Below are positions 1-57,498 of a stretch of DNA of 64,000 nucleotides, piece after piece. Position 1 is the stretch's first letter. Each line of letters opens with the position of its first letter. A model generated the notes under the pieces. The model ran no database searches. It had not been told where the DNA came from and saw nothing but the letters and a program-made list of their open reading frames with translations. A program made the translations under genes and the position numbers. This DNA is from Synergistetes bacterium HGW-Synergistetes-1 (GTDB lineage Bacteria > Synergistota > Synergistia > Synergistales > Synergistaceae), in assembly GCA_002839185.1 (NCBI GenBank), contig PGXO01000004.1:276806-340805 (forward strand), read 5' to 3'.

Positions 1-50
1 ATCGACTACCCATTGATTTCCAACTGATTTCCCATTGATCCCCCGTGGTC
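1..50. repeat. Truncated right (C-linker) arm of an 11-nt phased AATYGATT sub-repeat array; the window starts inside the element
   Basis: Tandem units atcgactaccc / attgatttcc / aactgatttccc / attgatccccc. Same unit type as the right arms at 6055-6162, 21593-21730 and 34482-34607. Confidence 0.7.
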
Positions 51-141
51 AACGCCTGCCTCTTCTCATTCTAACCGATTCTGATTACTTGCTATTCAAA
101 ACTGATCAGAACGGATATAATGGACTTAACGGATCGGCGAG

Positions 142-3181: not shown

Positions 3182-3183
3182 CT

Positions 3184-3311
3184 GCAATTGGGGCATCTCG
3201 GAGCCCTGGTTTAGCAACACTCGAAGTCCTGCGCTTCGACGTATGACCAATACGCCTTAGCTTGAACTTCTTCGAGTTGCGTCACCATCATCTCCGATCT
3301 GCTCCAATTGC
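3184..3311. repeat. 128-nt inverted-repeat module (family F): termini gcaattggggcatctcggagc / ctccgatctgctccaattgc around nested hairpins
   Basis: The terminal 20-21-mers are reverse complements with a few mismatches. The identical 21-mer recurs at 23100-23120. A related copy lies at 13298-13447. Interior hairpin is cttcgacgtat-gacca-atacgcctt. Confidence 0.65.
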
Positions 3312-3375
3312 GGAGGAATTGTTTATTAGAAATAACAAATTGAAAAAGGTCACTAGGATCAAGAACTAAAATCAC

Positions 3376-3494
3376 CGTCATTCCCGTATGGACCTGAGCG
3401 GGAATCCAGCGTCTCAGAACTTAGGTTATTACAAAGTTTTAAAGATTTAAACAAAAGACACTGGATCCCGGCTCAGGTGCATACCGGGATGACG
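3376..3494. mobile_element. MITE-like core element, copy 1 (~36-nt imperfect terminal inverted repeats cgtcattcccg...cgggatgacg)
   Basis: Left end: cgtcattcccgtatggacctgagcgggaatccagcg. Reverse complement of the right end: cgtcatcccggtatgcacctgagccgggatccagtg. AT-rich ~50-nt loop. Related copies at 7041, 37628, 45237 and 57151. No coding capacity. Confidence 0.6.
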
Positions 3495-3540
3495 AAGAGT
3501 GAAAAATGGTTATGAAAATAGTTTGACAGTATTTTAAACG

Positions 3541-3586
3541 ACTGCTTGCCAATTGCTTGCCCACTCTTGCCAATTGCTTGCCAGTC
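3541..3586. repeat. Tandem 11-nt CTTGCC sub-repeat array (right-arm orientation)
   Basis: actgcttgcc aattgcttgcc cactcttgcc aattgcttgcc agtc. Same flavour at 7378-7436, and inverse (ggcaagc) at 57033-57055. Confidence 0.7.
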
Positions 3587-3672
3587 TTTACAACAGTTTA
3601 GCTGAACCAATTGATTACCCACCGGATGTTTTTCCGGTAGATTAGTAAAGATATGAAAGCGAGGTCACACGT

Positions 3673-5885: not shown

Positions 5886-6162
5886 GCAAATCGATGGGGA
5901 ATCAATGGGTAATCAATTGGGAGAGGCTGCGGCGTGGATAATGCCGCGGGAATCGATAGCAAATCAGTTGGTTGGTTCATATAATTCGTTATAGTGAAGG
6001 TTCAAAGTGCCTGGATCCGGGATCTCAGTGAGAGGCCAAGTTTTCAGATCTAAACAACTGATTCGCCATTGATTACCCATTAACTCACCTATCGATTTCC
6101 GCGGCACGATTCTTGCCGCTGCCCCTAACAATCGATTTGCCATTGATTTCCCACTGATTCCC
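5886..6162. repeat. Foldback element: left arm of GNNAATCRRTT units, ~80-nt centre, right arm of complementary units; one GCGGC-type hairpin in each arm
   Basis: Left: gcaaatcgat ggggaatcaat gggtaatcaatt ... ctgcggcgtggataatgccgcggg aatcgatagcaaatcagttgg. Right: caactgattcgccattgattaccc ... ccgcggcacgattcttgccgc ... aatcgatttgccattgatttcccactgattccc. Confidence 0.8.
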
Positions 6163-6268
6163 GAACCATCATCTCAGCATTCCCCACATAACATTCACAC
6201 ACGTTAACGTTATAATAATAAAGTGATAAGATTTTATCATGCTAAAGATATTGACTGGAGGGATCCAT

Positions 6269-6818: not shown

Positions 6819-6962
6819 TGCGGCGAGATATCTGCCGCGGTAATCAATTGGTAATCGGTTGCAAATCTATTGCAAATCAATCGTTAGGGACGGCGGCGAG
6901 TACCGTGCCGCGCAAAGTGGCGATTTCATTGCCGCGAAGCAATTGCAAATCAATTGTTTGGA
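6819..6962. repeat. Left arm of a composite foldback element (AATCRRTT units plus two GCGGC-type hairpins)
   Basis: ctgcggcgagatatctgccgcgg taatcaattggtaatcggttgcaaatctattgcaaatcaatcg ... gccgcgaagcaattgcaaatcaattg. The matching right arm is at 7378-7556. Confidence 0.75.
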
Positions 6963-6982
6963 TTTGAGACTACAGAACCTAA

Positions 6983-7024
6983 CTGCGATCCCGGAATAAA
7001 CTCGTGCCGGGATCGCAGTTTTTT
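6983..7024 (+). terminator. Rho-independent terminator (12-bp stem plus T6) embedded in the composite element
   Basis: ctgcgatcccgg-aataaactcgtg-ccgggatcgcag-tttttt. Confidence 0.75.
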
Positions 7025-7040
7025 GCCCTGTCGCCCTTCC

Positions 7041-7313
7041 CGTCGTTCCCGAGTGCTCCAGTCGGGAATCCAGCGGCTTTTGTTTAGGCCCCAAAAATAA
7101 AGAATAGAACAGATCCATAAGAACTAAATCCCCGATCTCAAATCGCACTCGAAACAGTGTTGACACTAAGGTTTATCTATGAGTTTCTTTGACGAGAAAC
7201 AGTGTCCTTCTGATCTCGGAACGCACTCGAAATAGTGCGGATACTAAGGTTTATCTATGAGTTTCTCTGACGAGAAACAGTGTCCTTCTGATCAGAAGCA
7301 TAACGGGATGACG
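7041..7313. mobile_element. MITE-like core element, copy 2, carrying an internal 78-nt tandem duplication
   Basis: Left end cgtcgttcccgagtgctccagtcgggaatccagcggc; right end cgggatgacg. Lies at the centre of the 6819-7556 composite. Confidence 0.55.
7144..7299 (+). repeat. Direct tandem duplication, 2 x 78 nt
   Basis: The unit cgcactcgaaa[c/t]agtg...ctaaggtttatctatgagtttct[t/c]tgacgagaaacagtgtccttctgatc starts at 7144 and again at 7222. A partial third copy is at 57302-57326. Confidence 0.85.
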
Positions 7314-7377
7314 GAGGGGCGATGGGATCGCCACTTCCTGCATCATCATCACGCTGCATTTCTACGCCCCAAACTAT

Positions 7378-7556
7378 CGCTTGCCAACTGCTTGCCAACC
7401 GGCTTGCCAACGCTTGCCATTTTCTTGCCCTCCCTTCCAACCGACTCCCCATCGATTGCCAACCGATTACCAATCGATTACCGTGGCAGGATTTTTGCCA
7501 CAGTCCGAAACTATTGATTTGCCATCGATTCCCCATTGATTACCAATCGACTCCCT
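7378..7556. repeat. Right arm of the composite foldback: five CTTGCC units grading into AATCGATT-type units with a GTGGCA...TGCCAC hairpin
   Basis: cttgccaactg cttgccaaccgg cttgccaacg cttgccatttt cttgccctccc ... atcgattgccaaccgattaccaatcgattaccgtggcaggatttttgccac ... attgatttgccatcgattccccattgattaccaatcgactccc. Confidence 0.75.
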
Positions 7557-7603
7557 CGTCATCCGTGACATTGCAAACTGAATATGCAATGTCACGGATG
7601 ACG
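7557..7603. repeat. Perfect 19-bp inverted repeat with a 9-nt loop, 57 nt upstream of the uvrB start
   Basis: cgtcatccgtgacattgca-aactgaata-tgcaatgtcacggatgacg. The termini resemble the cgtcatccc MITE ends. Confidence 0.85.
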
Positions 7604-13227: not shown

Positions 13228-13277
13228 GGAAGTCAATTGGTAGTCAATAGCGAATCGATAGCAAATCAATTGTTTGG
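13228..13277. repeat. Left-arm AATCRRTT array (four units) without a full right arm
   Basis: ggaagtcaatt ggtagtcaat agcgaatcgat agcaaatcaatt gtttgg. Confidence 0.7.
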
Positions 13278-13297
13278 AACTGATAATCTGTCCCCTT

Positions 13298-21456: not shown

Positions 21457-21730
21457 GCTGCCGCGGGAGTCAATAGGGAATCGATAGGAAATCAATAGGC
21501 AGTCAATGGGTAATGCCTACGGCGAAGATCGTGCCGTGGGAATCAATTGCAATTCGGTTGGGAGTCAATTGGTAAGATTTTAGGATTACACAACTGATTT
21601 GCTATCGATTCCCAATTGATTACCAATAGAATCTCGCGGCACAGCCATTGCCGCAGCTCCTAACAACTGATTTGCAACCGATTACCAATAGATTACCAAT
21701 AGAATCCCGCGGCACGTTTTCTGCCGCACC
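21457..21730. repeat. Foldback element (AATCRRTT arms, GCGGC-type hairpins, short asymmetric centre ggtaagattttaggattacacaac)
   Basis: Left arm 21457-21580, right arm 21593-21730. 40 nt (21563-21602) are identical to 40069-40108. A 41-nt module (21614-21654) is identical to 32846-32886. Confidence 0.85.
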
Positions 21731-27396: not shown

Positions 27397-29004
27397 ATGT
27401 TTCTATTCAGATCTTTACCCGTATTGCCTTTACCGGTGTTAAGCCTGTTGCTGCCACTAGCCGCAGCTTTTCTTCCTCTTGGTTTTTATATATACAAAAG
27501 GATCAAATGCTGGCATAAATATGAAGAATGTGTCTGCGAAATTAATTTGAGGTTTTTAAAGATATTTTTTCTTGCCGTTCTATCGGCCAACCTTTTTCTT
27601 ACGTGGTCGGTATGGACAAGTATGGGAAAGGGCGGAACGGAACTATTTGTTCTGAGCAGCGGCGGATGGTCCCAAACTCTCTCTCCTGACAGTCCGATGC
27701 TTATTAAGGCAGTGCTTCAGGTAGATGTCTTTGGCGCGATGTCTGCCTTTCTGATGGGCTGCATAGCCTTTATTGCCGGACTTACTGCCATGGCTGACAA
27801 GAATGATACGATCAACCTTTCAAAGGTGAGCTTTTTTCTCACAACACTTGCAGGAATACAGGGGATCTTTTACTCAGGAGACTTATTCTCACTCTTTATT
27901 TTCATACTTATCTCACAGATCGGAGCATCAGGACTTTTCCATGGAATATTGACCAAAAAGGAAGAAATAAAAGAACTTGTCTGGTATTACCTTTCAAGAT
28001 CAACAGCATTGCTTATGTTCCTGGCAGGAGTTGGGCTATTTTATTATAATTATAAGACAACGAATATCGCAGTTTTATCTACAATGATAAAACTGGGAAC
28101 AAATGAAAAATTTGCGTATGCACTTCTCATCGTTCCGCTTTTTTTCATGTTTGTAAAGTCATCTTCATATGTAACCGACGGTTCAAGACGGGTATTTTTT
28201 GCAATACGGGCACAAGCGGCACTTTTTGTGGTTTTCAGGATCGTATTTTCCCTCTACGGTCCCCTTCACGGACTGGAAAAGATCCCGAATCTATTCATCA
28301 TGCTTGGCTTGATATTGCTTGTCGTATCCCTGATCCTGACTGCGAATGAAAAAGATCCTGTGAAGTTTGCTGAGGCAGCAGAGCTGTTCATGAAGGGGTT
28401 CCTGGTCATCTCAATGGGAATAAGCATCAGCGGAACATACGCAGCTCAGGCTGCTGCAGAGTATGGTTTTGGGGCGATCGAGAGCATGGTCGCGCTTTGG
28501 ATCCTTTTCCTGCCTGTCTCAGCGACCCTTTCGTTTGTTTGCTGCACATTGAAGCAGAAGACAGCTGAAGGTGAATTATGGCAGCAGCAGGGACTTTTTA
28601 GAAAGATACCTATTTCAGGTGTTGCATTTTTCTTTGCAGTCTGTGTGATCGCCGGACTCCCGCCATTTGTCGGCTTTCCTTCAAAACAGTTCCTTTACAG
28701 GTCTTCGAGTTACATTACACCGCTTCTGACGATATTTCTTCTGATATCCGCCCTGCTTATGCTTTTGATATCTATCCGTTACATTTCAAAAGTGATGTTC
28801 GGCAAGCCATCGGAGAACTCTGAAAATATAAGAAATGACGATGTTCAGGTGATAGTTCCGCTGATAATCCTTTTCGCTTTTCTCTTTTATTCCACAGTAA
28901 CTCCCTCGCTTTTTATCAACTCTATGGTCTCACCTTCTGTCTATTCCCTGCTCAATAGGGGACAGCTGGTCAACGCGATCCATCAGGGAGGGGTTTCTGA
29001 ATGA
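27397..29004 (+). CDS. Divergent proton-conducting antiporter-like membrane subunit (NuoL/M/N - MrpD - HyfB family, PF00361-like)
   Basis: About 14 predicted TM helices. LQVDVFGAMSAFLMG and GDLFSLFIFILISQIG blocks match the family layout, but the TM5 Glu position is not acidic. C-terminal AGLPPFVGFPSK hallmark. aggag SD. Confidence 0.55.
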   Translation: MFLFRSLPVLPLPVLSLLLPLAAAFLPLGFYIYKRIKCWHKYEECVCEINLRFLKIFFLAVLSANLFLTWSVWTSMGKGGTELFVLSSGGWSQTLSPDSPMLIKAVLQVDVFGAMSAFLMGCIAFIAGLTAMADKNDTINLSKVSFFLTTLAGIQGIFYSGDLFSLFIFILISQIGASGLFHGILTKKEEIKELVWYYLSRSTALLMFLAGVGLFYYNYKTTNIAVLSTMIKLGTNEKFAYALLIVPLFFMFVKSSSYVTDGSRRVFFAIRAQAALFVVFRIVFSLYGPLHGLEKIPNLFIMLGLILLVVSLILTANEKDPVKFAEAAELFMKGFLVISMGISISGTYAAQAAAEYGFGAIESMVALWILFLPVSATLSFVCCTLKQKTAEGELWQQQGLFRKIPISGVAFFFAVCVIAGLPPFVGFPSKQFLYRSSSYITPLLTIFLLISALLMLLISIRYISKVMFGKPSENSENIRNDDVQVIVPLIILFAFLFYSTVTPSLFINSMVSPSVYSLLNRGQLVNAIHQGGVSE

Positions 29005-29321: not shown

Positions 29322-30344
29322 ATGCAGAACATATTATTTAATATTTTGGGGTACTTTTCATCATGGGTACTGATGCTTGTCACGTTGATGATCGCCCTTT
29401 TTGCAGAGAGTACACACACATATTTTTCCGGCAGGAGTTTAAGCAGGAGGGGCATGATCGTATCATTGCTTCCTCTTCGTGACATATTCAAATCGATGAC
29501 TATGCCAATAAGCCTTCCTGAAGCTTCAGTGATAAGGCTCTCAACATACCTGCCATGCTTTGCTCTAGCCGCACTTATTCCAATTGCAGCAAGCATACCG
29601 TTTTTTTCATTTTTGCCGATAATGGACAACGGAGGAGATCTGATTCAGATCCTCCAGTTTGCAGCTCTTTCTGAAACACTGGCAATATTGGCGATATTCT
29701 CATTAGGTACAACTGATGCACAGATCACAGCTAACAGAATGATAAGGGAGCTTGTCAAACTTATTGTTCCAATGATGGCTGCGTTTATATCTATAGCCTT
29801 TTATTATTCAGCTAACGGGATCCAGGGCGATCCATTCAGCCTGAACGTCTTCACGACGGCGCTGCACATGACTCCATCAGCTCCCTTTTCACTGGCAGGG
29901 ACGCTTATTTTTATCTTTGTGATATTCAGTCAGATACCTCACAGCAACGCCGGATTCGGCTGCTCATTGCTAGAAAATTGCGAGCTCCCTGACTTTAACG
30001 GGGCTCCGAGGTCAATGCTTCAGCTTTGGTCGATATTCAGGGCCTTTCTGGTGGTAGCTCTGGTTACACATATTTTTTTCCCCTGGGGATATTTCAAGGG
30101 GCTTAACGCCGGTTTCAGCATCTCCTGGTGGGCACAGTCTGTCAATTTTGCAGCTTTCTGGACAACGGTCCTGGTGATGCGGGTTTTTGGTGTAACGCTC
30201 TGCTGGAAAGTAATGGAACTGCTCGAAAAAAAGGTCAGGATAAAAAATTCCGGAGTATGGTTATTTATAATACTTACCACAGTTGCGACTCTTCTCGTTG
30301 TATATGAAGGTATAAAAATATCGATGGAAGTGGCGGCGTTTTAA
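29322..30344 (+). CDS. Divergent NuoH/HycD/ND1-like polytopic membrane protein (tentative)
   Basis: The layout parallels E. coli NuoH by eye: an N-terminal TM then a charged loop (SGRSLSRRGMIVSLLPLRDIFKSM, compare GERRLLG...LVADMIKMF), and a late loop (LLENCELPDFNGAPRSMLQLW, compare [20 protein letters not shown]). The match is weak. Confidence 0.35.
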   Translation: MQNILFNILGYFSSWVLMLVTLMIALFAESTHTYFSGRSLSRRGMIVSLLPLRDIFKSMTMPISLPEASVIRLSTYLPCFALAALIPIAASIPFFSFLPIMDNGGDLIQILQFAALSETLAILAIFSLGTTDAQITANRMIRELVKLIVPMMAAFISIAFYYSANGIQGDPFSLNVFTTALHMTPSAPFSLAGTLIFIFVIFSQIPHSNAGFGCSLLENCELPDFNGAPRSMLQLWSIFRAFLVVALVTHIFFPWGYFKGLNAGFSISWWAQSVNFAAFWTTVLVMRVFGVTLCWKVMELLEKKVRIKNSGVWLFIILTTVATLLVVYEGIKISMEVAAF

Positions 30345-30349
30345 AACGT

Positions 30350-30396
30350 GGCTGAGCGATAGCTGAGCAGTTGCTGAGCAATAGTTGAGCGGTCGT
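30350..30396 (+). repeat. Tandem 11-nt GCTGAGC sub-repeat array (left-arm orientation)
   Basis: ggctgagcgat agctgagcagtt gctgagcaat agttgagcggtc. Same flavour at 37424-37468 and 45126-45170; inverse at 45461-45505. Confidence 0.8.
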
Positions 30397-30419
30397 AGGG
30401 GCGGGAGGACAGTGGCGCC

Positions 30420-30652
30420 TTGGCCACGGAAAATTTGCAGCCTCTGGGCTGCGGAGAATTCGCAACTTAATAACCATGCCGCTGGTGAATTTGCGACGAA
30501 CTTATGTCGCGGTGAATTAAATCTTAATGATTCATTAACCAATTCTCCGCTGAATGTTACATTCAGCAAATTCTCCGCAACGCAAAGCGTTGTGAATTCA
30601 CCGCAGCGTTATCGCTGCAAATTCACCGCGATGCATGGCATCGCAATTCACC
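30420..30652. repeat. GAATTC-box / mini-hairpin array with inverted left and right halves
   Basis: Left boxes: ggaaaatttgc, gcggagaattcgc, gctggtgaatttgc, gcggtgaatt. Right boxes: ccaattctccgc, gcaaattctccgc, gtgaattcaccgc, gcaaattcaccgc, gcaattcacc. Unique short palindromes lie between boxes (tgaatgttacattca, aacgcaaagcgtt, agcgttatcgct, gatgcatggcatc). Confidence 0.8.
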
Positions 30653-30694
30653 TCAGTGATGGCATAAGATATAAACTAATGGTAAACTGAACTT

Positions 30695-30722
30695 TTGACA
30701 GACGTTTATTTGGAAATATAGA
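30695..30722 (+). promoter_or_regulatory. Candidate glnS promoter
   Basis: -35 ttgaca, 16-nt spacer, -10 tataga. ggaggt SD at 30733. Confidence 0.5.
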
Positions 30723-30745
30723 AAGCGATCTTGGAGGTATAATCA

Positions 30746-32425
30746 ATGGCTTTTGATGAAGGATCTAGAAATCTTAATTTTCTTGAAGAGATAATAACGA
30801 AAGATCTTGAAAATGGGGTTACAGAGAGTGTAGTTACCCGTTTTCCGCCGGAGCCTAACGGCTACCTGCACATAGGCCACGCGAAGTCGATATGCCTTAA
30901 TTTTGGACTTGCACAGCAGTTTGGCGGAAAGTGCAACCTTCGTTTTGATGACACGAATCCTGCGAAGGAAGAAACAGAGTACGTAGAATCGATAATGAAC
31001 GATGTAAAATGGCTCGGTTTTGAATGGGCTAACCTCCGGTATGCATCTGATTACTTCGATCAGTTCTATCAGTGGGCCCTCGACCTGATCAATGCAGGCA
31101 AGGCTTATGTTGATGATCAGAGCGCCGAAGAGATGAGGCAAAAGAGAGGCACATTAACAAAACCGGGAGAGGATTCTCCATACAGGGAAAGAAGCGTAGA
31201 GGAAAACATTGATCTTTTCAAAAGAATGACGGCCGGAGAATTCGAAGAGGGCACGAGAGTTCTTCGCGCTAAGATAGACATGTCCAGCAACAACCTTAAC
31301 ATGAGGGACCCTGTTATATACAGGATATTGAAGAGAAGCCACCACAGGACAGGAGATAAGTGGTGTGTATATCCGATGTATGACTTCGCTCATGGCTACG
31401 AAGACGCAATAGAAGGAGTAACTCACTCCATCTGTACGCTGGAATTCCAGGACCATCGCCCCCTCTATGACTGGTTCATAGATAACGTAGATGTACCGCA
31501 TGTCCCGCGTCAGTATGAATTTGCACGTTTGAATCTGACATACACGCTTATGAGCAAACGCAAGCTTCTTGAGCTTGTCACAACAGGTATAGTTTCAGGA
31601 TGGGACGATCCCAGGATGCCCACCATATGCGGTTTCAGGCGCAGGGGCTATACACCTGAGTCGATCAGGCGCTTCTGCAAAGAGATAGGTGTTGCAAAAG
31701 CTGACAGTATGGTAGAAGTGGAACTTCTGCATTATTGCCTCAGGGAAGAGCTCAACAGGACAGCACAGCGCGGCATGGCAGTTTTGCGTCCTCTTAAGGT
31801 GGTCCTTGAAAATTGGCCCGAGGGCTTCGTGGATGAACTGGATGCAGAAAATAATCCTGAGGATGAAAATGCCGGGAACAGGAAGGTCTCAATAGGAAAA
31901 GAGATATACATCGAGAGGGACGACTTTATGGAGGAACCTGTTAAGGGCTTCTTCCGGCTCGCTCCTGACAAAGAAGTGCGCCTCAAATATGCATACATAA
32001 TAAAGTGCAGGGACATTGTCAAGGATGAAAAGGGAGAGGTCGTCGAGCTCCGCTGCACTGTTGACATGGACAGCCGCGGAGGAGATGCGCCAGACGGCAG
32101 GAAGATAAAAGGCACGCTCCACTGGGCATGGGCCGGAGAGGCCGTCAAAGCAAAGGTCAACCTCTATGGCCATCTCTTTACACTAAAAAACATGAGTGAC
32201 ATGGAAGAGGGCAAAGACTACAAAGATTATCTTGATCCCAATTCTCTTGTAGTGATTGAGGACGCGTTGGTTGAACCGATCCTTGCTGATGCGAAGCCAA
32301 TGGACAAGTTCCAGTTTATGCGCCATGGATATTTCTGCGCAGATCACGACAGTACGCCGGAAAAACCCGTATTCAACCTTACTGTGTCCCTTAAGGATTC
32401 CTGGGGCCGTCAGAATAAGATGTGA
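30746..32425 (+). CDS. glnS: Glutaminyl-tRNA synthetase
   Basis: [17 protein letters not shown] (HIGH) and LMSKRKL (KMSKS). GlnRS-type C-terminal anticodon-binding domain. Confidence 0.95.
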
Positions 32426-32996
32426 AGCGGCTAGGGGCGTGCCGCGGGAGTCAATTGGGAATCGGTCGGAAATCGGTTGGGAATCAATGGGTAGGGCCTG
32501 TGGCATATTTCGTACCACGTCAGTCAATTGCAAATCGGTGGGTAGTCAATGTGTAGGGCCTGCGGCTAGGATCAAGCCGCGGGAATCAATTGCAAATCGG
32601 TTGGTAGTCAATGTGTAGGGCCTGCGGCTAGGATCAAGCCGCGGGAATCAATTGCAAATCGGTTGGTAGTCAATTGGTAAGACCTGTGGCATAGACCGCG
32701 CCACGGCAGTCGATTGGCAATCAATTGCAAATTAATAGAAAATCAGTTGGAAGTGATTGGCAAGGTCTAAGATACACCAACAGATTTGCAACTGATCACC
32801 AATCGATTCGCAATAGATTTGCAATCTATTTGCCGTTGATTTTTTAATTGATTACCAATAGAATCTCGCGGCACAGCCATTGCCGCGGCTCCTAACAATC
32901 GATTTACAACTGATTTCCAATTGATTACCGATCAATTCCCGTCGGAAGCAGCCGGATGATTTTCCGGCAGCTTCACGTGGCAGGCTGCCATGCCAC
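32426..32996. repeat. Largest foldback element: left arm with four 62-nt higher-order repeats (hairpin plus three 11-nt units), asymmetric centre, inverted right arm, two trailing hairpins
   Basis: 62-nt copies start at 32489, 32551, 32613 and 32675; the middle two are identical. Centre ggcaaggtctaagatacaccaacag. Right arm 32775-32942. Confidence 0.9.
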
Positions 32997-33027
32997 AAAT
33001 AATCACAAACTACCGGAGGTTTATAGA

Positions 33028-34365
33028 ATGTCCTTAAAAACACGCGTAAGATTTGCTCCAAGCCCCACAGGGTCACTGCACATCGGGGGAGCGCACACGG
33101 CACTCTTCAACTGGCTGTATGCACGCCATACCAGGGGTACCTTTGTCCTCCGCATAGAAGACACAGACAAGGAACGTTCAACTGCTGAATACGAGCAGTC
33201 GATAATGGACGGGATGAGATGGATGGGCCTCGACTGGGACGAAGGTCCCGATAAGCCGGGGGAGTTCGGTCCCTACAGACAGTCAGAGCGCATGGATTCC
33301 TACACTAAATACGCAAACCGGCTCCTTGATGCCGGACTTGCCTACAAAGAAGACGGCGCAGTACTTTTTAAAGTCCCTTCAGGCAAACTCGTCACATTTG
33401 ATGATGAAGTCTATGGACACATCGAGGTGCTGAGCGAAAATGCCTCTGTCAATCAGGACGGGACCATCAAGGACATAGTAATCCTCAAGAGGGATGGTAT
33501 GCCTACATACAACTATGCTGTCGTTATTGATGACTATACTATGAACATAAACATGGTCATTCGCGGAGAAGACCACATTATCAATACGCCTAAGCAACTG
33601 CTGATCTATCAGGCCCTCGGGTTCGAGGCGCCAAAGTTTGCACACCTTCCGATGATACTTGGCAAAGATAAAAAAAAGCTCTCTAAGCGCCAGGGAGCCA
33701 CAAGTGTATTCGAATACAACGATCTTGGATACCTTCCCGACGGCGTGTTCAACTTTCTTGCCCTTCTTGGTTGGTCGCCGAAGAACGGACAGGAGATATT
33801 TACAAGGGAAGAGGCTATAAAAAACTTTGATCTCTCCTCGGTAACAAAGAAACCGGCAGTCCTTGATATGGACAAGCTGAACCACATCAACCAGGAACAG
33901 ATGAAAATAATGGATCCGTACAAGCTCCTGGAGATAATAAAGCCGTTCTGGAAGGACCTTGGGTTTGACATCAACAGCTATTCCGACGACTACCTTGCTT
34001 CCTCACTTCAGGCAATGGGCGGCAGGGGCCAGACTACACTTCAGCTTGCCGAATACAGCGACTACTTTATAAGTTTTGATGCAGTTAAAGAGAGATACAA
34101 GGCGGACGATATTAACGAAGAACGCCGCCCTGTACTGAAAAAATTCTACGGGGAGCTCATTAATGCCCCTGACTTTACACCTGAAGTACTGGAAACCTTC
34201 ACAAAATCATGGGTCGAAACCAACGAAAGCAGCATGAAAGAGGTCGCCCTCCCGCTCAGATGGGCCCTTACCGGAAGAAAGGTAAGCCCGGGAGTTTTTG
34301 AGGTGGCAGCTCAGCTGGGCCCGGAAGAATGCCAAAGGAGACTGGCCCACTACTGTCTGGTTTAG
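33028..34365 (+). CDS. gltX: Glutamyl-tRNA synthetase
   Basis: RFAPSPTGSLHIGGAHTA (HIGH) and KLSKRQG (KMSKS). ATG 33028 lies 8 nt after ggaggt; the ORF-maximal 32956 start lies inside the repeat. Confidence 0.95.
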   Translation: MSLKTRVRFAPSPTGSLHIGGAHTALFNWLYARHTRGTFVLRIEDTDKERSTAEYEQSIMDGMRWMGLDWDEGPDKPGEFGPYRQSERMDSYTKYANRLLDAGLAYKEDGAVLFKVPSGKLVTFDDEVYGHIEVLSENASVNQDGTIKDIVILKRDGMPTYNYAVVIDDYTMNINMVIRGEDHIINTPKQLLIYQALGFEAPKFAHLPMILGKDKKKLSKRQGATSVFEYNDLGYLPDGVFNFLALLGWSPKNGQEIFTREEAIKNFDLSSVTKKPAVLDMDKLNHINQEQMKIMDPYKLLEIIKPFWKDLGFDINSYSDDYLASSLQAMGGRGQTTLQLAEYSDYFISFDAVKERYKADDINEERRPVLKKFYGELINAPDFTPEVLETFTKSWVETNESSMKEVALPLRWALTGRKVSPGVFEVAAQLGPEECQRRLAHYCLV

Positions 34366-34417
34366 AAGTACTGAGTCGCCAAACGGCCTTATATGGCAGT
34401 GGCAAGGAGAGTGCCCG

Positions 34418-34607
34418 TGGGAGTCAGTTGCGAATCGATTGGTAATCAGTTGCAAATCTGTTGGTGTATCTTAGACCTTGCCAATCATTTCCAACTGATT
34501 CCCTATTGATTTGCTATTGATCAGCGATCGACTTCCGCGGCAGGGTCCACGTTGCCGCTTATAATCATTGATTCCCCATTGATTACCAATTGATTCCCAA
34601 TTGACTC
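34418..34607. repeat. Foldback element whose 56-nt centre is the reverse complement of the centre at 32741-32796
   Basis: The reverse complement of 34445-34500 matches 32741-32796 at 55 of 56 positions. The arms keep the usual G-linker-left / C-linker-right polarity. Confidence 0.85.
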
Positions 34608-34714
34608 ACCGGGCGCCTCTCGGTGCCCTGACATTGTCTCTCCTCTCCTTTACCCTTACAATGTGAATTATATAAAGCACAAGATATTTTTTACAGGTAA
34701 AGAGGATGGTAAAT

Positions 34715-37309
34715 ATGAGTAAAAACCTGCTTCTGATAGATGGGCACGGACTTGCATTCAGGGGCTTTTACGCGCTTCCGGAGACATTGTCCGCAGCTGA
34801 CGGAACCCCTACCAACGCTATATTGGGATTTACAACGATGCTTCTGAACGGACTTGATAAATGGAGCCCGGACAGGGTAGGGCTCTTTTTCGACCCAAAG
34901 GGACCTACGAGGCGTCATGAACTTTTCAAAGAGTATAAGGAGGGCAGAAAGCCTACTCCTGAAGGTTTTAAAATCCAGATGCCGCTGATAATTGAGATAA
35001 GCAAGGCAATGGGCATTCCTGTTTTTATCAGGGAAGGCATGGAAGCTGATGATTATATCGTATCTACCGCAAAGAAAGCCTCCGATGAAGGATGGAACGT
35101 CAGTATTTTTTCTGCCGACAAAGACCTTTTTCAGATCATAAACGGAAATATCAAAATTATTCGTCCGACAAAAGGAGTAAGCGACTTTAAGATCTACGAC
35201 AAGGAACTTTTTATTGAAGAATACGGTTTTAAACCTGAGTCTATGGCTGACTACCTTGCTTTAGTGGGCGATGCCGTCGACAATATTCCCGGGGTCCCCG
35301 GAATAGGAGAAAAGACCGCCAAAGAACTGATCGGGAAATTCGGGTCATTGGAAGGCATTTTTGAAAATATGGAAGAGGTGCCCAAGGGGAGAAGGTCAAA
35401 GCTTGAGGAAAACACAAAACTTGCCTATTCAAGCAGGGACCTGATAATACCCCAGATAACAGAAAGCGTTCCTCTTGAAGAGCTTGTAATGAAGGGACCT
35501 GAGGAAGACCTTCTTGTTGAACTATGCACAAGGCTGAGCCTTAGAAGGCTTTTGGAACGTATTCTGCCGCATGCAAAAATTTCCGACAGCGCAAAGGTCC
35601 AGAAGAAACCGGTCAGCAATGTACTTACAAAAGTACCTGCTGTCACTCCGATCGTCGATATCGGGGATAGGCCTGACAGTGTGGAGGCCGCCCACGAAGA
35701 GCTGTTCAAGGCTGTTGAGCTTGCCCTGGCACCTGCCGACAGGGATAAGAAAATATTCTGCCTCTTTGACAGAAAGGGGAGGACCGCATATCTGGACCTA
35801 GGTGACCCCGAACAGACGGAGAAGTGGGCAGAATGGTGCAAACGAGGTACTTTGACTCTCTTCGGTTACAGGGATCTGCTTTCAAAATTTAATATCCCCC
35901 TTCCTCCAACGAAGAAGATCAGGGACGTTGAGATAGCACATTACCTTCTCCATCCTGACCGTGGGGGAAGCTCCATTGAAAAGACCCTGGGACGCAAACT
36001 TCCGCAGGGGATAGACCTTGCAAGGGAGCTCTTCGCGCTGTGGGATGCTTTTGAGCCGGAAATGAGGAAGTTCGGACTCGACAAGCTCATGATGGAGCTT
36101 GACCTTCCGCTTTCTGTAGCACTGGCTGATCTTGAGCGCAATGGTGTATTTGCAGATGTCACCAAACTAGCCTCAATGGGGAAAGATCTGGAGAAAACTA
36201 TAGCGCAAACTGAAACAGACATAGAAAAATTAGTGGGAGAAAGAATTAACCTTAATTCACCAAAGCAGGTAGGATGGCTTCTCTTTGAGCATCTTCACCT
36301 GCCTCCGTTAAAGAAAACACAGACCGGCTACTCAACTGACATGAGCGTTCTCGAAGAACTGGCACGGCTCCCTGAGCCGCTTTGTGACGTTCCAAACAAA
36401 ATTATCGAGTATCGTGAAGAGGCTAAAATACTTTCCGGATTTGTCCAGCCCTTCCTATCTATAGCTTCAGAAGGGGATGGTTTTATCCATTCTACTTTTG
36501 ACCACCTTTCGACCGGCACGGGCCGTCTTTCAAGCAGAGACCCAAATGTGCAGAACATGCCGCTTTTCGGCAAATGGGCTGTCAGATTCAGGGATTGTTT
36601 TATTCCCTCAGATAACGGAAAGATATTTGTAGCGGCGGACTATTCACAGATCGAGCTGAGGGTTCTTGCCCACTTATCCGGTGAGGAAAGGCTGATAAGC
36701 GCTTTTTCAGAAGGGCGTGACGTACACATGGAGACAGCATCGTGGGTCTTCGGGCTTCCTGCGGATAAGATAACCCAGGAACAGCGGCGATTTGCGAAGG
36801 TCGTCAACTTCGGTCTCCTATATGGGATGGGGGCTCACGGTCTTGCGCAGCGGCTGGGAATATCCAGGCCGCAGGCAGCGAGTATGGTTGAGAGGTACTT
36901 CAGCGTCCTTCCCAATGTTAAGGGATATCTTGAAAAGAGCGTGAAGGAAGCAAAGGAAGCGGGATATACCCGTTCAATATTTGGCAGGATAAGGCCTCTT
37001 GCTGAAGTAGCCACGACAGCGGGAAGAGGAAATAACCCTATAGACAGGGTGGCAGTCAATACGCCAATCCAGAGCGCCGCATCTGACATTGCAAAAGTTG
37101 CCATCATGAGGTTTGACAAGGTAGTAAAGGAAGAATTCAAAGGTGCGAAGACAGTCCTGCAGATCCATGACTCTATAGTCTGCGAGTGTTTGGCAGAAGA
37201 TGCTGACAGGCTGGAGAAGAGGCTGGTCGAAGTAATGGAAAGCGTAGATGTCCTGAGTGTACCTGTTAAGGCAGAACCAAAGCGCGGCGGTTCCCTCAGC
37301 AAAGTGTGA
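34715..37309 (+). CDS. polA: DNA polymerase I
   Basis: 5' nuclease block (LLLIDGHGLAFR), family A polymerase motifs (DYSQIELRVLAH, RRFAKVVNFGLLYGM, QIHDSIV). ATG 34715 lies 8 nt after agagga. Confidence 0.96.
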   Translation: MSKNLLLIDGHGLAFRGFYALPETLSAADGTPTNAILGFTTMLLNGLDKWSPDRVGLFFDPKGPTRRHELFKEYKEGRKPTPEGFKIQMPLIIEISKAMGIPVFIREGMEADDYIVSTAKKASDEGWNVSIFSADKDLFQIINGNIKIIRPTKGVSDFKIYDKELFIEEYGFKPESMADYLALVGDAVDNIPGVPGIGEKTAKELIGKFGSLEGIFENMEEVPKGRRSKLEENTKLAYSSRDLIIPQITESVPLEELVMKGPEEDLLVELCTRLSLRRLLERILPHAKISDSAKVQKKPVSNVLTKVPAVTPIVDIGDRPDSVEAAHEELFKAVELALAPADRDKKIFCLFDRKGRTAYLDLGDPEQTEKWAEWCKRGTLTLFGYRDLLSKFNIPLPPTKKIRDVEIAHYLLHPDRGGSSIEKTLGRKLPQGIDLARELFALWDAFEPEMRKFGLDKLMMELDLPLSVALADLERNGVFADVTKLASMGKDLEKTIAQTETDIEKLVGERINLNSPKQVGWLLFEHLHLPPLKKTQTGYSTDMSVLEELARLPEPLCDVPNKIIEYREEAKILSGFVQPFLSIASEGDGFIHSTFDHLSTGTGRLSSRDPNVQNMPLFGKWAVRFRDCFIPSDNGKIFVAADYSQIELRVLAHLSGEERLISAFSEGRDVHMETASWVFGLPADKITQEQRRFAKVVNFGLLYGMGAHGLAQRLGISRPQAASMVERYFSVLPNVKGYLEKSVKEAKEAGYTRSIFGRIRPLAEVATTAGRGNNPIDRVAVNTPIQSAASDIAKVAIMRFDKVVKEEFKGAKTVLQIHDSIVCECLAEDADRLEKRLVEVMESVDVLSVPVKAEPKRGGSLSKV

Positions 37310-37316
37310 TATAAAA

Positions 37317-37406
37317 TTGTGAAACTGCTGGAATAACGCCGGCGTGAAACAGCGAATACCTTTGTGAAACTGCCAGAATAACGCTGGCGTGAAACAATGA
37401 TGAAGC
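37317..37406 (+). repeat. Direct tandem repeat 2 x 45 nt containing four GTGAAAC boxes
   Basis: ttgtgaaactgctggaataacgccggcgtgaaacagcgaataccttt followed by gtgaaactgccagaataacgctggcgtgaaacaatgatg. Confidence 0.8.
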
Positions 37407-37423
37407 TGTGGTTTTCAAGGAAC

Positions 37424-37468
37424 GGCTGAGCGATGGCTGAGCAGTAGCTGAGCAGTGGCTTAGCGGTT
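37424..37468 (+). repeat. Tandem 11-nt GCTGAGC sub-repeat array
   Basis: ggctgagcgat ggctgagcagt agctgagcagt ggcttagcggtt. Confidence 0.8.
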
Positions 37469-37488
37469 GTAGAAGCCAAGAGCAGGGT

Positions 37489-37880
37489 CGGGGAATTGCA
37501 TCCTTTGGCTGCGGGGAATTTGCAGGACTTTGTCCTGCGGAGAATTTGCTTGCTTCGCATTGCGGAGAATTTGCCGGAAGACCCTTCCGGCGGGGAATTG
37601 AGACTTTGATCAAGAATCAAAAAGCACCGTCGTTCCCGAATGCCTCCGTCGGAAATCCAGTGGCTTGTGTTTAAAGGTTTTTAAATTCTACAACTGCTGC
37701 GATTGTGAGAAAAGCCGTCAAACGGTTGTTAAATGCGCGGGGAATTGGACCATGAATATTAAAGACTGAATTCTCCGCGATGCGAAGCGAGCAAATTCTC
37801 CAGCGGCGGATGCCGCGAATTCTCCGCAGCCCTGAGGCTGCAAATTCCCCGCACCTACGACCGCTTAGCAAATTCTTCTC
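37489..37880. repeat. GAATTC-box / mini-hairpin arms flanking a partial MITE-like core (37628-37700)
   Basis: Left boxes: cggggaattgc, gcggggaatttgc, gcggagaatttgc (x2), gcggggaattg. Right boxes: gaattctccgc, gcaaattctcc, cgcgaattctccgc, gcaaattccccgc. Core left end: cgtcgttcccgaatgcctccgtcggaaatccagtggc. Confidence 0.8.
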
Positions 37881-38003
37881 CATCTTCCTTCAATAAAATA
37901 TATAGGGAAAATAGTGTGTAAATTTGCTTGCGTCTTTCTGAAACCTGCAATATAATATACAGCTGTATGTTAGACGTATCAGAACATCTGGAGGTGCAAT
38001 ACA

Positions 38004-38243
38004 TTGAAAAAGGATATACATCCAAAATACGAAACCTGCAAGGTGACCTGCGCCTGCGGCAATACTTTTGAAACCAGGGCTACTACAGGGGACATGAGGG
38101 TCGCGGTATGCAACGCATGTCATCCATTCTACACTGGCAAGAAGGGCCGCGTAATAGAAGCCGGACGACTTGAGAAATTCCGTCAGAAATACGCAGGCGT
38201 GAACTACGGACAGAAGAACGTAACAGAGGGTACAGAAGAATAG
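38004..38243 (+). CDS. rpmE: 50S ribosomal protein L31 (zinc-binding type A)
   Basis: MKKDIHPKY start, CxC ... CxxC cysteines, HPFYTGK. TTG start after ggaggtg. Confidence 0.95.
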   Translation: MKKDIHPKYETCKVTCACGNTFETRATTGDMRVAVCNACHPFYTGKKGRVIEAGRLEKFRQKYAGVNYGQKNVTEGTEE

Positions 38244-38252
38244 CTTTTACCC

Positions 38253-38285
38253 ACGAGGGGAGCGAATCGGCTCCCCTCGTTTTTC
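38253..38285 (+). terminator. Rho-independent terminator of rpmE
   Basis: acgaggggagc-gaatcg-gctcccctcgt-tttt. Confidence 0.85.
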
Positions 38286-38343
38286 TAGTAACTACAGCCT
38301 GTTGTCATATCGATATCCTGTCTGATGAAAGGAGGCTGTCTCC

Positions 38344-39036: not shown

Positions 39037-39986
39037 AAATTTATATTGCTTTACAGCGGATAATATTATCCGCTTTTATTGCTGTTCCCAAAAGGATACC
39101 CGTTGGCGGACAGGCGGTTATAGAAGGAGTCCTTATGAAAGGCCCGGAACATTGGGGACTGGCAGTCAGAGAACCGGGCGGTTCTATATGGCTTAAAGCC
39201 TGGCTTGGTTCAGATTGGCTCAAAAATGGCATATGGAAGTATCCAATTATCAGAGGCTTTGCCACCATGGTCGAGATGATGAGGATAGGCATGAGGGCAT
39301 TGTCCATTTCTGCCGAGATCAGTCTCGGCGAAGAGGATAAAATATCGCCTCTTGAGATGGCAGGTGCTATTGCAGTTGCTATATTTGCCGTTGCGGGTCT
39401 TTTTGTTGCGCTGCCGATGCTGGTTTCTGAATATCTGACATTCCTTTTAGGACTTACCCATCTTTCTAAGAATATAATGGAAGGTATCCTCAGGGGAGTA
39501 ATTTTTGTGGGATACGTTGCAATGATAGGGCTTTGGAAAGACATACAGCAGGTATTCGCCTATCATGGAGCGGAACATAAAACGATAAATGCATACGAGA
39601 ATGATGCTGAACTCACGCCTGAAAGTGTAGCAAAATTTTCAAGGATTCACAGGCGCTGCGGTACATCCTTTTTGCTTGTAGTGATCTTTGTAAGCATAAT
39701 AGTATTCTCTGCCATAGGGGGAGGCTCACTTCTGTGGAGGATAGGGAGCAGGGTGCTGTTGCTGCCCTTTGTTATAGGCATATCGTACGAATTTATAAAA
39801 GGAGCCTCAAACTCTGAAACATGGGGCAGATACTGTATAATGCCCGCTCTCTCGCTGCAGTACATAACGACAAGGGAACCGAGGCTGGATCAGATAGAGG
39901 TAGCCCTCGCAGCGCTTGACCTGGCTCTGAACCCGGAAGCTGCCGGACAGGATTCCGGCGGGAGTCAATTGGAAATCGATGGGTAA
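39033..39986 (+). CDS. DUF1385 membrane protein (commonly linked to prfA/prmC)
   Basis: VGGQAVIEGVLMKGP and YHGAEHKTINAYE blocks. ATGA coupling to thyX. The last ~15 codons and the stop codon lie inside the repeat element. Confidence 0.85.
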   Translation: MKIYIALQRIILSAFIAVPKRIPVGGQAVIEGVLMKGPEHWGLAVREPGGSIWLKAWLGSDWLKNGIWKYPIIRGFATMVEMMRIGMRALSISAEISLGEEDKISPLEMAGAIAVAIFAVAGLFVALPMLVSEYLTFLLGLTHLSKNIMEGILRGVIFVGYVAMIGLWKDIQQVFAYHGAEHKTINAYENDAELTPESVAKFSRIHRRCGTSFLLVVIFVSIIVFSAIGGGSLLWRIGSRVLLLPFVIGISYEFIKGASNSETWGRYCIMPALSLQYITTREPRLDQIEVALAALDLALNPEAAGQDSGGSQLEIDG

Positions 39987-40200
39987 TCGGTTGGGAGTCA
40001 ATTGGTAAGACCTGTGGCATAGACCGCGCCACGGCAGTCGGTTGGCAATCAATTGTAAATCGGTTGGAAGTCAATTGGTAAGATTTTAGGATTACACAAC
40101 TGATTTGCAATTGATTCCCAATTGATCACCAATAGATTCTTGTGGCACAGCTATTGCCGCAGCCCCTCCCAATTGATTTGCAACCGATTACCGCGGCAGC
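39942..40200. repeat. Foldback element overlapping the 3' end of the DUF1385 gene
   Basis: The hairpin gccggacaggattccggc followed by gggagtcaattggaaatcgatgggtaatcggttggg parallels 32441-32480. Centre and right arm are near-identical to 21563-21700. Confidence 0.85.
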
Positions 40201-40261
40201 ACAGCTGCAGCTTTATGCAGGAATAATTATCCTGCAACTTAAACAGGTGGTGTGATCTTAG

Positions 40262-45119: not shown

Positions 45120-45125
45120 TAATAC

Positions 45126-45505
45126 AGCTGAGCAATGGCTGAGCAGTAGCTAAGCAGTAGCTGAGCGGTCGTAAAGGCAGGCGGGATAACCGCAGGCGGA
45201 GAATTGCGGTCCAAGGCCTCGGAGGTTCAAAATCACTGTCGTTCCAGAATGATCCAATCGGGAATCCAGCGGCTTAGAACTTAGGTTATTACAGGCATTT
45301 AAAGATTTAAACAAAAGAAACTGGATCACCGCTCACGGCCAGAGAGCCAACGAGTTGCGAGTTGCGCGAATCGGCTGGTAGTTACACCAGAGGTATACGT
45401 GGATTACGGAGATAGAAGCATAGCTGGATGACTCGGTAAAAGATTTTTAAGTTTCTACAACTGCTCAGCGATCGCTCAGCCATTGCTCAGCAACAGCTCA
45501 GCCGA
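45126..45505. repeat. Composite element: GCTGAGC left arm (45126-45170), one GAATTG box, MITE-like core copy 4 plus a conserved 59-nt module, GCTCAGC right arm (45461-45505)
   Basis: Left: agctgagcaat ggctgagcagt agctaagcagt agctgagcggtc. Right: ctgctcagcgat cgctcagccatt gctcagcaac agctcagccgat. Core 45237-45340 is alignable to 3376-3470. Confidence 0.8.
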
Positions 45506-45553
45506 TTTTTACAACTGCAATCGCTGTTCCACCATCGTTCAAGGGGGGATAAG

Positions 45554-56947: not shown

Positions 56948-56953
56948 AGACAT

Positions 56954-57469
56954 GGCTAAGCAATGGCTAAACGGCAGGACTTGTGTCCTGAGTGAAGCGG
57001 CGATCTTATCGCCGTGAAGCGATTGTAAGGACGGGCAAGCTATTGGCAAGCGGTTATTGGGGACAGCGACTATAGTCTTGTCGCGGGAATCGGTGGTGAA
57101 TCAATTGCAAATCAGTTGGTAGTCAATAGGTAAGACCTAAGCCCAATCTCCGTCATCCCGGCTGACGGGAAGAGAGCCAACGAGTTACAAGTTGCACGAA
57201 TCGGCTGGTAGTTACACCAGAGGCATACCGGGGAGACAAAAGAGACGAATCTCAGATTCAAGAACGCATTTGTAGTAAGGCGGAAATAAATCTTTTTCTA
57301 TAAGTTTATCTAACGAGAAACACTGTTTTTATGATCAAGGGCACACGGAGATGCAGAGAATGTGATATGCCGGGATTATGGTGATTTGGGGTTTGGGTAT
57401 TTTAACCACTGACTCCCCACTGATTCCCGACTGATTTGCAACCGACTCAAGCGGCATGTTCTTGCCGCA
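56954..57469. repeat. Composite element between cdaR and glmM: the left arm carries four sub-repeat flavours in series, then MITE-like core copy 5 (57151-57380), then a right AATYGATT arm with hairpin
   Basis: ggctaagcaat ggctaaacgg | gtgaagcggcgatcttatcgccgtgaagcgattg | gggcaagctatt ggcaagcggtt | gggaatcggt ggtgaatcaatt gcaaatcagtt ggtagtcaat | core | ccactgactcccc actgattcccg actgatttgc aaccgactc aagcggcatgttcttgccgc. Confidence 0.8.
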
Positions 57470-57498
57470 GTTCTGCTATTTATTAAGGGGTGGCTTGG

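Follow-up and report, generated by a model that had tools for sequence, protein, structure and literature searches.

Intervening sequences (IVSs) in 23S rRNA genes and the open reading frame (ORF) for the S23p protein (PF05635) have been known since the early 1990s, and neither the function of the protein nor the mechanism of spread has been established (PMC4990558). The IVS of Coxiella has terminal inverted repeats with S23p in the loop, carries tandem GACAGAT heptamers upstream of the S23p ORF and is excised by RNase III, and its origin and mobility are unexplained (PMC4990558). PF05635 genes have also been noted squeezed in among cas genes (PMC3936711) and inside the rRNA insertions that occur in bacteria of the candidate phyla radiation (CPR). 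Here we describe, from a stretch of 64,000 nucleotides of an uncultured member of the Synergistaceae (Synergistetes bacterium HGW-Synergistetes-1, contig PGXO01000004.1, positions 276,806 to 340,805; hereafter the window, numbered from its first letter), a family of foldback-like elements that occur in multiple intergenic copies, with inverted arms made up of tandem 11-nt sub-repeats broken by GC hairpins. The copies are designated E1 to E9 and X1 to X4 (Table 1); E6, treated here in most detail, lies in the spacer between glnS and gltX.

The Synergistaceae elements resemble the rRNA IVSs of Leptospira, Coxiella, Brucella and Xanthomonas relatives in having long terminal inverted repeats that act as a stem, a PF05635 ORF in the loop of full-length copies, short ORF-less versions, tandem short repeats upstream of the ORF (the heptamers in Coxiella, PMC4990558), a presumably passive carriage in the host transcript, and an unexplained origin and mobility. 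However, they are located in spacers of protein genes and not in 23S or 16S rRNA helices, their arms are much longer, modular (hairpin plus 11-nt arrays) and built from several unit families, the window copies have no ORF, and by extrapolation dozens to hundreds of copies are expected per genome. Repeats of the Neisseria NIME/Correia and enterobacterial ERIC type are likewise intergenic mosaics with inverted repeats at their borders; they are transcribed together with adjacent genes, and RNase III cuts some of the Correia repeats. These families share no sequence or unit architecture with the present one, however, and are without tandem 11-nt arrays. Eukaryotic Foldback elements and miniature inverted-repeat transposable elements (MITEs) with subterminal repeats are similar in their long inverted arms of sub-repeats, small or cargo-bearing centre and non-autonomous copies, whereas the Synergistaceae elements are bacterial, have no target-site duplications, sharp termini or transposase, and contain variable hairpins that interrupt the arms as well as other repeat modules nested symmetrically. 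Among described systems the elements are best filed as IVS-like/BIME-like (BIME, bacterial interspersed mosaic element), and what is distinctive about them is the unit frame with variable core, the hairpins with variable stems, the nested symmetric layers, the G-first polarity and the association with PF05635.

Reality, architecture and turnover of the elements

A sequence-only reading of the window had proposed foldback-type elements with arms of tandem sub-repeats of about 11 nt, and these do form a genuine multi-copy intergenic family. A two-unit motif (ARTCRRTNGNNARTCRRT) matched 56 times in the window compared to 0.00 matches expected from 100 dinucleotide shuffles, and all 56 matches fall within the loci at which that reading had seen the architecture recur; four composite palindromes of other unit families (X1 to X4) had been overlooked. 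Altogether at least 13 composite palindromes cover about 4.76 kb, corresponding to about 7.4% of the window and about three quarters of its long spacers. All copies lie between protein-coding or tRNA genes and are strictly extragenic by motif scan, and the window is without rRNA. Autocorrelation of the glnS-gltX spacer peaked at lag 11 (0.44) and lag 62 (0.485) over a background of about 0.25, Tandem Repeats Finder (TRF) reported a 62-nt unit repeated 3.3 times plus many 11-nt arrays, and self-matches of at least 24 of 33 nucleotides were present window-wide at 115 positions for lag 11 and at none for every other lag in the range 5-19. The periodicity of 10-12 nt anticipated from the letters is therefore present, with lag 11 alone strong among lags 5-19, and the 40-nt and 41-nt stretches common to copies were confirmed as exact. 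The predicted RNA fold of the spacer had an energy of -237.6 kcal/mol on the + strand (z = -8.0; z = -9.2 for the - strand).

The elements are not an assembly artefact, a refutation that the sequence-only reading had foreseen, because an independent ENA assembly (L001; L-numbers denote fetched loci or contigs, P-numbers PF05635 proteins) is identical in this spacer except for one fewer 62-nt unit. The missing module (window 32519-32642 versus L001 4777-4838) is either true copy-number variation or a collapse by the k=141 assembler, and a Logan contig ends within E6, the usual break point for repeats.

The order of modules in an arm is a variable GC hairpin, three to five tandem 11-nt units and a GTAR junction. 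In E6, glnS ends at 32425 and gltX most likely starts at 33028, behind GGAGG, giving a spacer of 602 nt. The earlier description of this spacer as one 570-nt palindrome is right in that it is an imperfect palindrome; its length has to be corrected and its arms are lopsided, with about 333 nt and five modules on the left, about 165 nt and two modules on the right, and a complementarity between them of only about 72-80%. The left arm has 18 tandem 11-nt units (4+3+3+3+5), one array behind each hairpin, of the form G-S-N-A-R-T-C-R-R-T-N, and the arrays are closed by GTAR-type junctions such as GGTAGGGCCT and TGGTAAGACCT. The frame G1-x2..x6-C7-R8-R9-T10-N11 is common to several unit families, and the 5-nt cores differ between elements. 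In family A (core (G/C)NARTC; window and many loci) G1 was found in 98% of 113 units, and the same frame holds in families B (GCTGAGC) and C (GGCAAGC), both from the window, D (GTCAAAC; L004), E (GCACAGC; L213), G (GTGAAGC; L221) and H (GACAAGC; L256); family F (GGRGAAAC; L219) is a 12-nt variant. Modules are reshuffled among copies.

A perfect hairpin of at least 5 bp abuts 26 of the 53 array starts, as compared to 2.7 +/- 1.6 in shuffles (an about 10-fold enrichment), and the small hairpins use about 20 distinct, perfectly compensating stems; it is therefore the hairpin itself that is selected and not its sequence. The arms always follow each other in the order G-arm to C-arm, never C to G, across unit families and also in 7-nt arrays of another phylum, and this invariant G-first order is an intrinsic polarity. 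The observation that the G-arm is 5' and the C-arm 3' at every locus is thus correct, but it carries no information on orientation relative to the genes, because the order is unchanged by reverse complementation of a palindrome. A fixed orientation with respect to the coding strand is not supported, as the only asymmetric parts are found both ways between + strand genes: the loop of E7 matches that of E6 in reverse complement, and the sister species L003 carries the Q module of X3 in inverted form. For asymmetric cores, four were co-oriented with the genes and one was ambiguous in only five informative cases, with the E6 and E7 loops opposite. The suggestion that unit length reflects one helical turn is weakened by 12-nt units (L219) and by the 7-nt arrays beside PF05635 genes of another phylum.

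A presence/absence comparison of the kind that had been proposed, made with sister species, revealed gain and loss of copies. L003, which is collinear with the window and 91-92.5% identical to it in nucleotide sequence, keeps E8; E6 is absent (spacer of 55 nt with two B-type units), E7 is absent (spacer of about 30 nt), and the centres of X2 and X3 differ, with the outer B array of X3 kept. In L004, members of different families occupy the same spacers. Window 1-60, which includes E1, is identical to L138 at 59 of 60 positions, but in a locally conserved region. L112 lacks the whole of window segment 5917-7526 and has one hybrid element in place of E2, a 191-aa ORF and E3, which suggests recombination (deletion or insertion) between neighbouring elements; the elements appear to drive deletions between neighbouring copies. 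Neither target-site duplications nor clean insertion boundaries were found when filled and empty or altered spacers were compared (window versus L003 and L001), and spacers were remodelled between species rather than cleanly interrupted. Hence, of the Foldback design put forward earlier, the inverted arms of tandem sub-repeats are retained, and classical Foldback/MITE transposition is not. The earlier statement that the window holds no transposase was borne out: none was recognised, nor any integrase or reverse transcriptase, in a Pfam scan of all main ORFs but one (a MrpD-like ORF at 27397-29004, by NCBIfam only), eight main ORFs being without any family match.

The closest GlnS relatives are from the Synergistaceae metagenome-assembled genomes (MAGs) UBA6101 (95% aa) and CTOTU7595 (89%), both of which have lag-11 arrays. 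No such arrays were found in 15 other glnS loci checked, three of them from more distant Synergistaceae on short contigs, and a pattern scan of JGI metagenomes yielded about 20 more contigs with blastn-confirmed members (GC 0.42-0.50). The family is lineage-specific, in a clade of uncultured Synergistaceae. An exact 32-mer had no match in the GTDB species genomes, and the species representative therefore lacks this copy or differs at it. E5 had no blastn match in PLSDB or INPHARED, and viral contigs gave only chance pattern matches without blastn similarity. Rfam 15 at gathering threshold returned only four tRNAs and no element match, and at E<=1 only sub-threshold hairpin look-alikes (MIR6140, WsnRNA46), so that a catalogued RNA family, named beforehand as a possible refutation, was not found even at permissive thresholds. 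Our literature search on Synergistetes repeats, 11-nt repeats and PF05635/S23p mobile elements found no description, and the family is apparently undescribed. In Beggiatoaceae, TAACTGA heptamer repeats (PMC4679880) form direct arrays of period 7 and are something else. A CRISPR array was rejected, since the architecture is the reverse (hairpins vary and intervening units are conserved) and no CRISPR direct repeat (CRISPR-DR) was matched in Rfam.

Association with PF05635 genes

PF05635 is S23p, the protein of intervening sequences in 23S rRNA, a four-helix bundle related to Avd. In the hpt-ftsH spacer of L138 and L112, A-type arms surround a 122-aa ORF that matches PF05635 with E = 4.5e-32. 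L138 is collinear with the window (88.6% identity), the ORF-bearing element is located exactly at the position of X1, and the right-terminal unit and hairpin are common to the L138 element and X1. Homologues of PF05635 occur commonly in metagenomes of Synergistaceae, most of them on contigs that are very short, and tandem-unit arrays of the same frame (lag 11 or 12) adjoin the PF05635 ORF in all nine Synergistaceae-type loci examined. In seven of the nine (L138/L112, L209/L211, L216, L221, L203, L224 and L213) a G-type array stands upstream and a C-type array downstream; L219 has a more complicated layout, and the contig of L256 stops just beyond the ORF, before the downstream side. About 25 tandem 12-nt variant units (GGRGAAACRRTN) occupy both sides of the PF05635 gene in L219 (590-830 and 1385-1470), and the period is therefore not fixed at 11.

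The PF05635 ORFs are co-directional with their neighbours in 12 of 12 loci (six locus types), and in other phyla the gene likewise lies between co-directional operon genes. In L230, from another phylum, it is wedged between two ACR_tran efflux genes and flanked by inverted 7-nt arrays, with about five G-rich units upstream (1113-1147) and about seven C-rich units downstream (1636-1688). The protein matches the pentameric four-helix bundle of PDB 2GSC (E = 6.8e-17). Moreover, the unit family tracks the PF05635 clade: A units accompany P0001, P0003 and P0004 (74-89% identical), GCTAAGC units P0024 and P0031 (75% identical), and GCACAGC, GTGAAGC and GACAAGC units P0036, P0018 and P0038, respectively.

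With the link to PF05635 and the rRNA IVSs, the elements have a context that is more specific than any of the three general roles suggested from the letters (non-autonomous mobile element, RNA hairpins as operon insulators or stabilisers, phased protein-binding arrays). Arms around PF05635 genes tie these repeats to a 30-year-old puzzle on selfish hairpin elements, and this lineage appears to hold a large, diversified non-rRNA population of IVS-kind elements, with ORF-less copies, unit "dialects", gain and loss. The elements, at about 7% of the window, break short-read assemblies and thus matter for MAG quality and for the annotation of operons in digester and gut Synergistaceae.

Origin and possible function

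The explanation that we favour, although we regard it as an even call, is that the window holds ORF-less relatives of IVS-type elements, which reside in operon spacers and are present in the cell as read-through RNA hairpins. Miniature relatives of IVS-type selfish elements would have colonised spacers within and between housekeeping operons instead of rRNA helices. Transcription by read-through is inferred because the arms contain no recognisable terminator, the flanking genes are co-directional housekeeping genes, and a terminator scan of 30300-40300 gave a single strong match, after rpmE. The arms would fold as a long imperfect RNA stem with side hairpins, and RNase III would probably cut this stem, by analogy with rRNA IVSs, so that the insertion would be tolerated and the neighbouring cistrons separated. 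With G-first polarity the transcript would be alike in either insertion orientation, and the C-rich arm, being made second, could pair at once, whereas a C-rich arm made first would stay single-stranded and open to factors such as Rho; this may be why the G-first order is selected. Copies would most likely spread and turn over as DNA, through recombination or gene conversion with one another and through insertions into the centres of palindromes, and the PF05635 protein possibly binds the unit arrays.

Several results weigh against this explanation. In Watson-Crick-only folds of seven elements, G.U and A.C mismatches numbered 29 and 22, giving no sense-strand asymmetry, and arm pairing was no better within than between elements, giving no sign of in-situ compensatory evolution of the long stem; as element-specific covariation is lacking, the pairing of the arms comes from the family consensus to which both keep. 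The wobble pairs flanking the small hairpins merely mirror each other between arms and give no strand-specific signal of RNA selection. The structure tests do not discriminate RNA from DNA hairpins. The centre of E3 holds a terminator-like hairpin. The spacer 39987-40261, which contains most of E8, is 97.1% identical in L003 (264/272), compared to 78% at 4-fold sites (n = 293) of the two flanking genes, a conservation more in keeping with a host function than with a purely selfish element; on the other hand, the dispensability of E6 and E7 argues the opposite way. With regard to PF05635, orthology of the loci confounds the agreement of unit type with protein clade, and tblastn with a PF05635 protein gave no match in the window, in line with its ORF-less copies. 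The strongest caveat to the link is that arrays fill most long spacers in these genomes, so that a PF05635 gene might not own the arms but be a guest nested at the centre of a palindrome.

A bolder extension, which we think rather unlikely, is that PF05635 proteins and unit arrays are matched pairs with a simple, evolvable recognition code. Here a toroidal pentamer would bind about five units in nascent RNA or single-stranded DNA in a TRAP-like manner, four canonical units plus the degenerate GTAR unit being taken up one per subunit. Each paralogue would read its own 5-nt core (x2-x6) in the constant G-x5-C-R-R-T-N frame, the elements would be self-contained mobile or regulatory "IVS" modules, and G-first order would let the protein meet its sites before the complementary arm exists. 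If the unit frame is indeed a code read by a protein, it would constitute a new modular nucleic-acid recognition system, and matched pairs would provide the first function for PF05635/S23p, explaining rRNA IVSs, the PF05635 genes scattered within operons as well as cas loci, and perhaps also how Avd arose.

Turning from IVS-type relatives to other explanations, the elements could be of the repetitive extragenic palindromic (REP), BIME or REPIN type known from Proteobacteria, in which a REP-associated tyrosine transposase (RAYT) with its gene elsewhere in the genome would recognise a GC hairpin with a GTAR head on single-stranded DNA, the arrays being filler or accessory motifs and PF05635 incidental; we consider this not very probable. 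The GTAG/GTAA junction before a GC-rich hairpin is like the head of the E. coli REP, modules common to copies are arranged as a mosaic of direct and inverted clusters, copies are dense and strictly extragenic with fast turnover among relatives, symmetric doublets are REPIN-like, and the missing target-site duplications are what a Y1-type mobilisation predicts. However, about 20 distinct stems occur among the copies, whereas RAYTs read a conserved REP sequence; in the Synergistaceae elements it is the presence of a hairpin that is conserved, and the outermost hairpins often have no GTAR head. The 11-nt tandem units that make up most of each arm are missing in REP/BIME, and the recurrent association with PF05635 and the conserved unit frame would be left unexplained. 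Furthermore, no RAYT was found: six-frame translations of the window and of loci L001-L202 contained no HUH/Y1 (RAYT/IS200) motif, and Y1_Tnp had no match among the window ORFs.

Improbable in our view is that the arrays are double-stranded DNA sites phased for a nucleoid-associated, partition-type or ribbon-helix-helix protein, or for PF05635, and serve chromosome organisation or operon insulation. The palindromic layout would then reflect converging site polarity and not hairpin formation, which agrees with the finding that the arms are not specifically co-adapted, so that pairing may not be selected. The units keep an invariant frame (G1, C7, R8R9, T10) around cores specific to each family, as operators or iterons do, the 11-bp period is near the helical repeat, and E8 is conserved well above neutral sites. 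As a precedent, parC of plasmid R1 consists of two clusters of five 11-bp repeats bound by ParR, and the clusters of about four to five direct 11-bp repeats seen here are likewise plausible sites for cooperative protein binding. In contrast to the dispersed elements with their inverted arms and hairpins, parC is a single locus beside the par genes with all repeats direct; no ParM/ParR/ParA/ParB-type domain was found among the window ORFs, as against 13 dispersed copies, and the window has no linked candidate gene for a binding protein. Related arrays with 12-nt and 7-nt periods and the dispensability of E6 and E7 in a sister species also speak against such sites, and the compensating hairpin stems argue for a single-stranded structure.

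Finally, miniature derivatives of cut-and-paste transposons (a bacterial Foldback or MITE, with sub-repeats as transposase sites as in eukaryotic Foldback, CACTA or Tn7-like ends) would account for the long inverted arms of sub-repeats, the presence/absence polymorphism between species and the cargo sometimes found between arms, and the terminal inverted repeat (TIR) elements of L104 and L119 show that such a design exists in true transposons, but filled and empty sites define no termini or target-site duplication in the remodelled spacers, no transposase was recognised in the window or beside any copy, the only ORF repeatedly enclosed by arms is PF05635, not a known transposase, and the arms are lopsided with varying module number, which makes this origin very doubtful.

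Coordinates and accessory modules

Table 1. Elements of the family in the window and parts of E6 (window positions).
Feature	Position	Strand	Description
E1	1..50		A-type C-arm cut by the window edge
X1	3182..3672		Composite palindrome, hpt-ftsH spacer; P module, asymmetric core, P', C-family arrays (TGCTTGCCAA), terminal A-type unit + hairpin
E2	5886..6162		A-type; 3' of a tRNA gene plus terminator
E3	6819..7556		A-type arms 6819-6962 and 7437-7556
E4	13228..13291	+	Half element; G-type A array only
E5	21457..21730		Compact A-type, two modules per arm
X2	30345..30660		B-family G array (GCTGAGC units); modules of GC hairpin + GGAGAATT, mirrored by AATTCTCC + hairpin
E6 outer GC hairpin H1	32427..32445		GCGGC-N9-GCCGC; immediately after the glnS stop codon
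E6 array 1	32446..32499	+	Four G-type 11-nt units GGGAGTCAATT GGGAATCGGTC GGAAATCGGTT GGGAATCAATG + junction GGTAGGGCCT
E6 modules 2-4	32500..32685	+	62-nt tandem x3, each hairpin + 3 units + TGTAGGGCCT/TGGTAAGACCT junction; hairpins 32500-32518, 32562-32580, 32624-32642
E6 module 5	32686..32758	+	GTGGC-N9-GCCAC hairpin (32686-32704, identical to the E8 hairpin at 40014-40032) + five G-type units
E6 apical loop	32759..32778		GGCAAGGTCTAAGATACACC, 20 nt
E6 inner C-arm	32779..32866	+	Eight C-type units, complement of G-type
E6 C-arm hairpin and junction	32867..32895		Hairpin CGCGGCACAGCCATTGCCGCG (32867-32887), inside the exact 41-nt stretch common to 21614-21654, + junction GCTCCTAA
E6 outer C-arm	32896..32940	+	Four C-type units
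E6 two terminal hairpins	32945-32974 and 32977-32996		Without T-run; 31 nt upstream of the gltX start (33028)
E7	34405..34625		A-type, gltX-polA spacer
X3	37310..37880		Nested layers: GTGAAAC + hairpin / B array / GGAGAATTT + hairpin / Q module / mirrored C-type layers
E8	39942..40205		A-type
X4	45120..45510		B-family G array, Q module, asymmetric core, P', B-family C array
E9	56948..57475		Outer GTGAAGC/GGCAAGC units; A-type arms 57085-57137 and 57407-57469

Other modules are symmetrically nested between the arms, namely hairpin + GGAGAATTT, GTGAAAC + hairpin, a 34-nt module P, the related module Q, an asymmetric core and a 78-nt module. The E3 centre (475 nt) comprises the terminator-like hairpin, a Q module, the 78-nt module in tandem and C-family arrays, and the E9 centre (270 nt) includes a partial 78-nt module. 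Very strong hairpins were seen at the edge of E3 (7557-7603, a 19-bp perfect stem) and in its centre (6981-7020, 14 bp, followed by a T-run), and at least E3 may thus contain a terminator. Copies of the 78-nt module occur in the centres of some elements (window 7144-7299, tandem x2, and 57293-57336; L151 6558-6635; L187 5058-5135; L003 13859-13932); its predicted fold has three conserved hairpins, with 5 of 19 predicted pairs retained via two-sided changes, and the module may be a small structured RNA or a further mobile module.

The asymmetric core (AGAACTTAGGTTATTACA-N5-TTTAAAGATTTAAACAAAAGA) lies between inverted 34-nt P/Q modules (CGTCATCCCGG...CCGGGATCCAG), is MITE-like in appearance and is nested at the centres of larger palindromes. 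It was found at window 3380-3500 and 45230-45340, at L149 7780-7960 and at about 220 and 2151 of L004, and Rfam gave only a sub-threshold WsnRNA46 look-alike at this core. The metagenome scan also returned L104 and L119, which are unrelated low-GC TIR transposons and not family members; at L104 1990-2866 and L119 79-1349 they have a eukaryote-type TIR look (CAGACATAACTAATC... termini) and 11-nt subterminal repeats TAATCRATGAG.

Among the neighbouring genes, the 191-aa ORF between E2 and E3 (6239-6814) has no Pfam match, and the DUF1385 gene takes its last approximately 15 codons and its stop codon (39942-39986) from the first hairpin and units of E8, likewise in L003. A Schlafen/AlbA_2 gene (142-1455 versus L138 328-1641) is 82% identical at 4-fold sites with an upstream spacer at 98.6%, as compared to 60-68% for the next two genes, which hints that this segment was recently exchanged between species.

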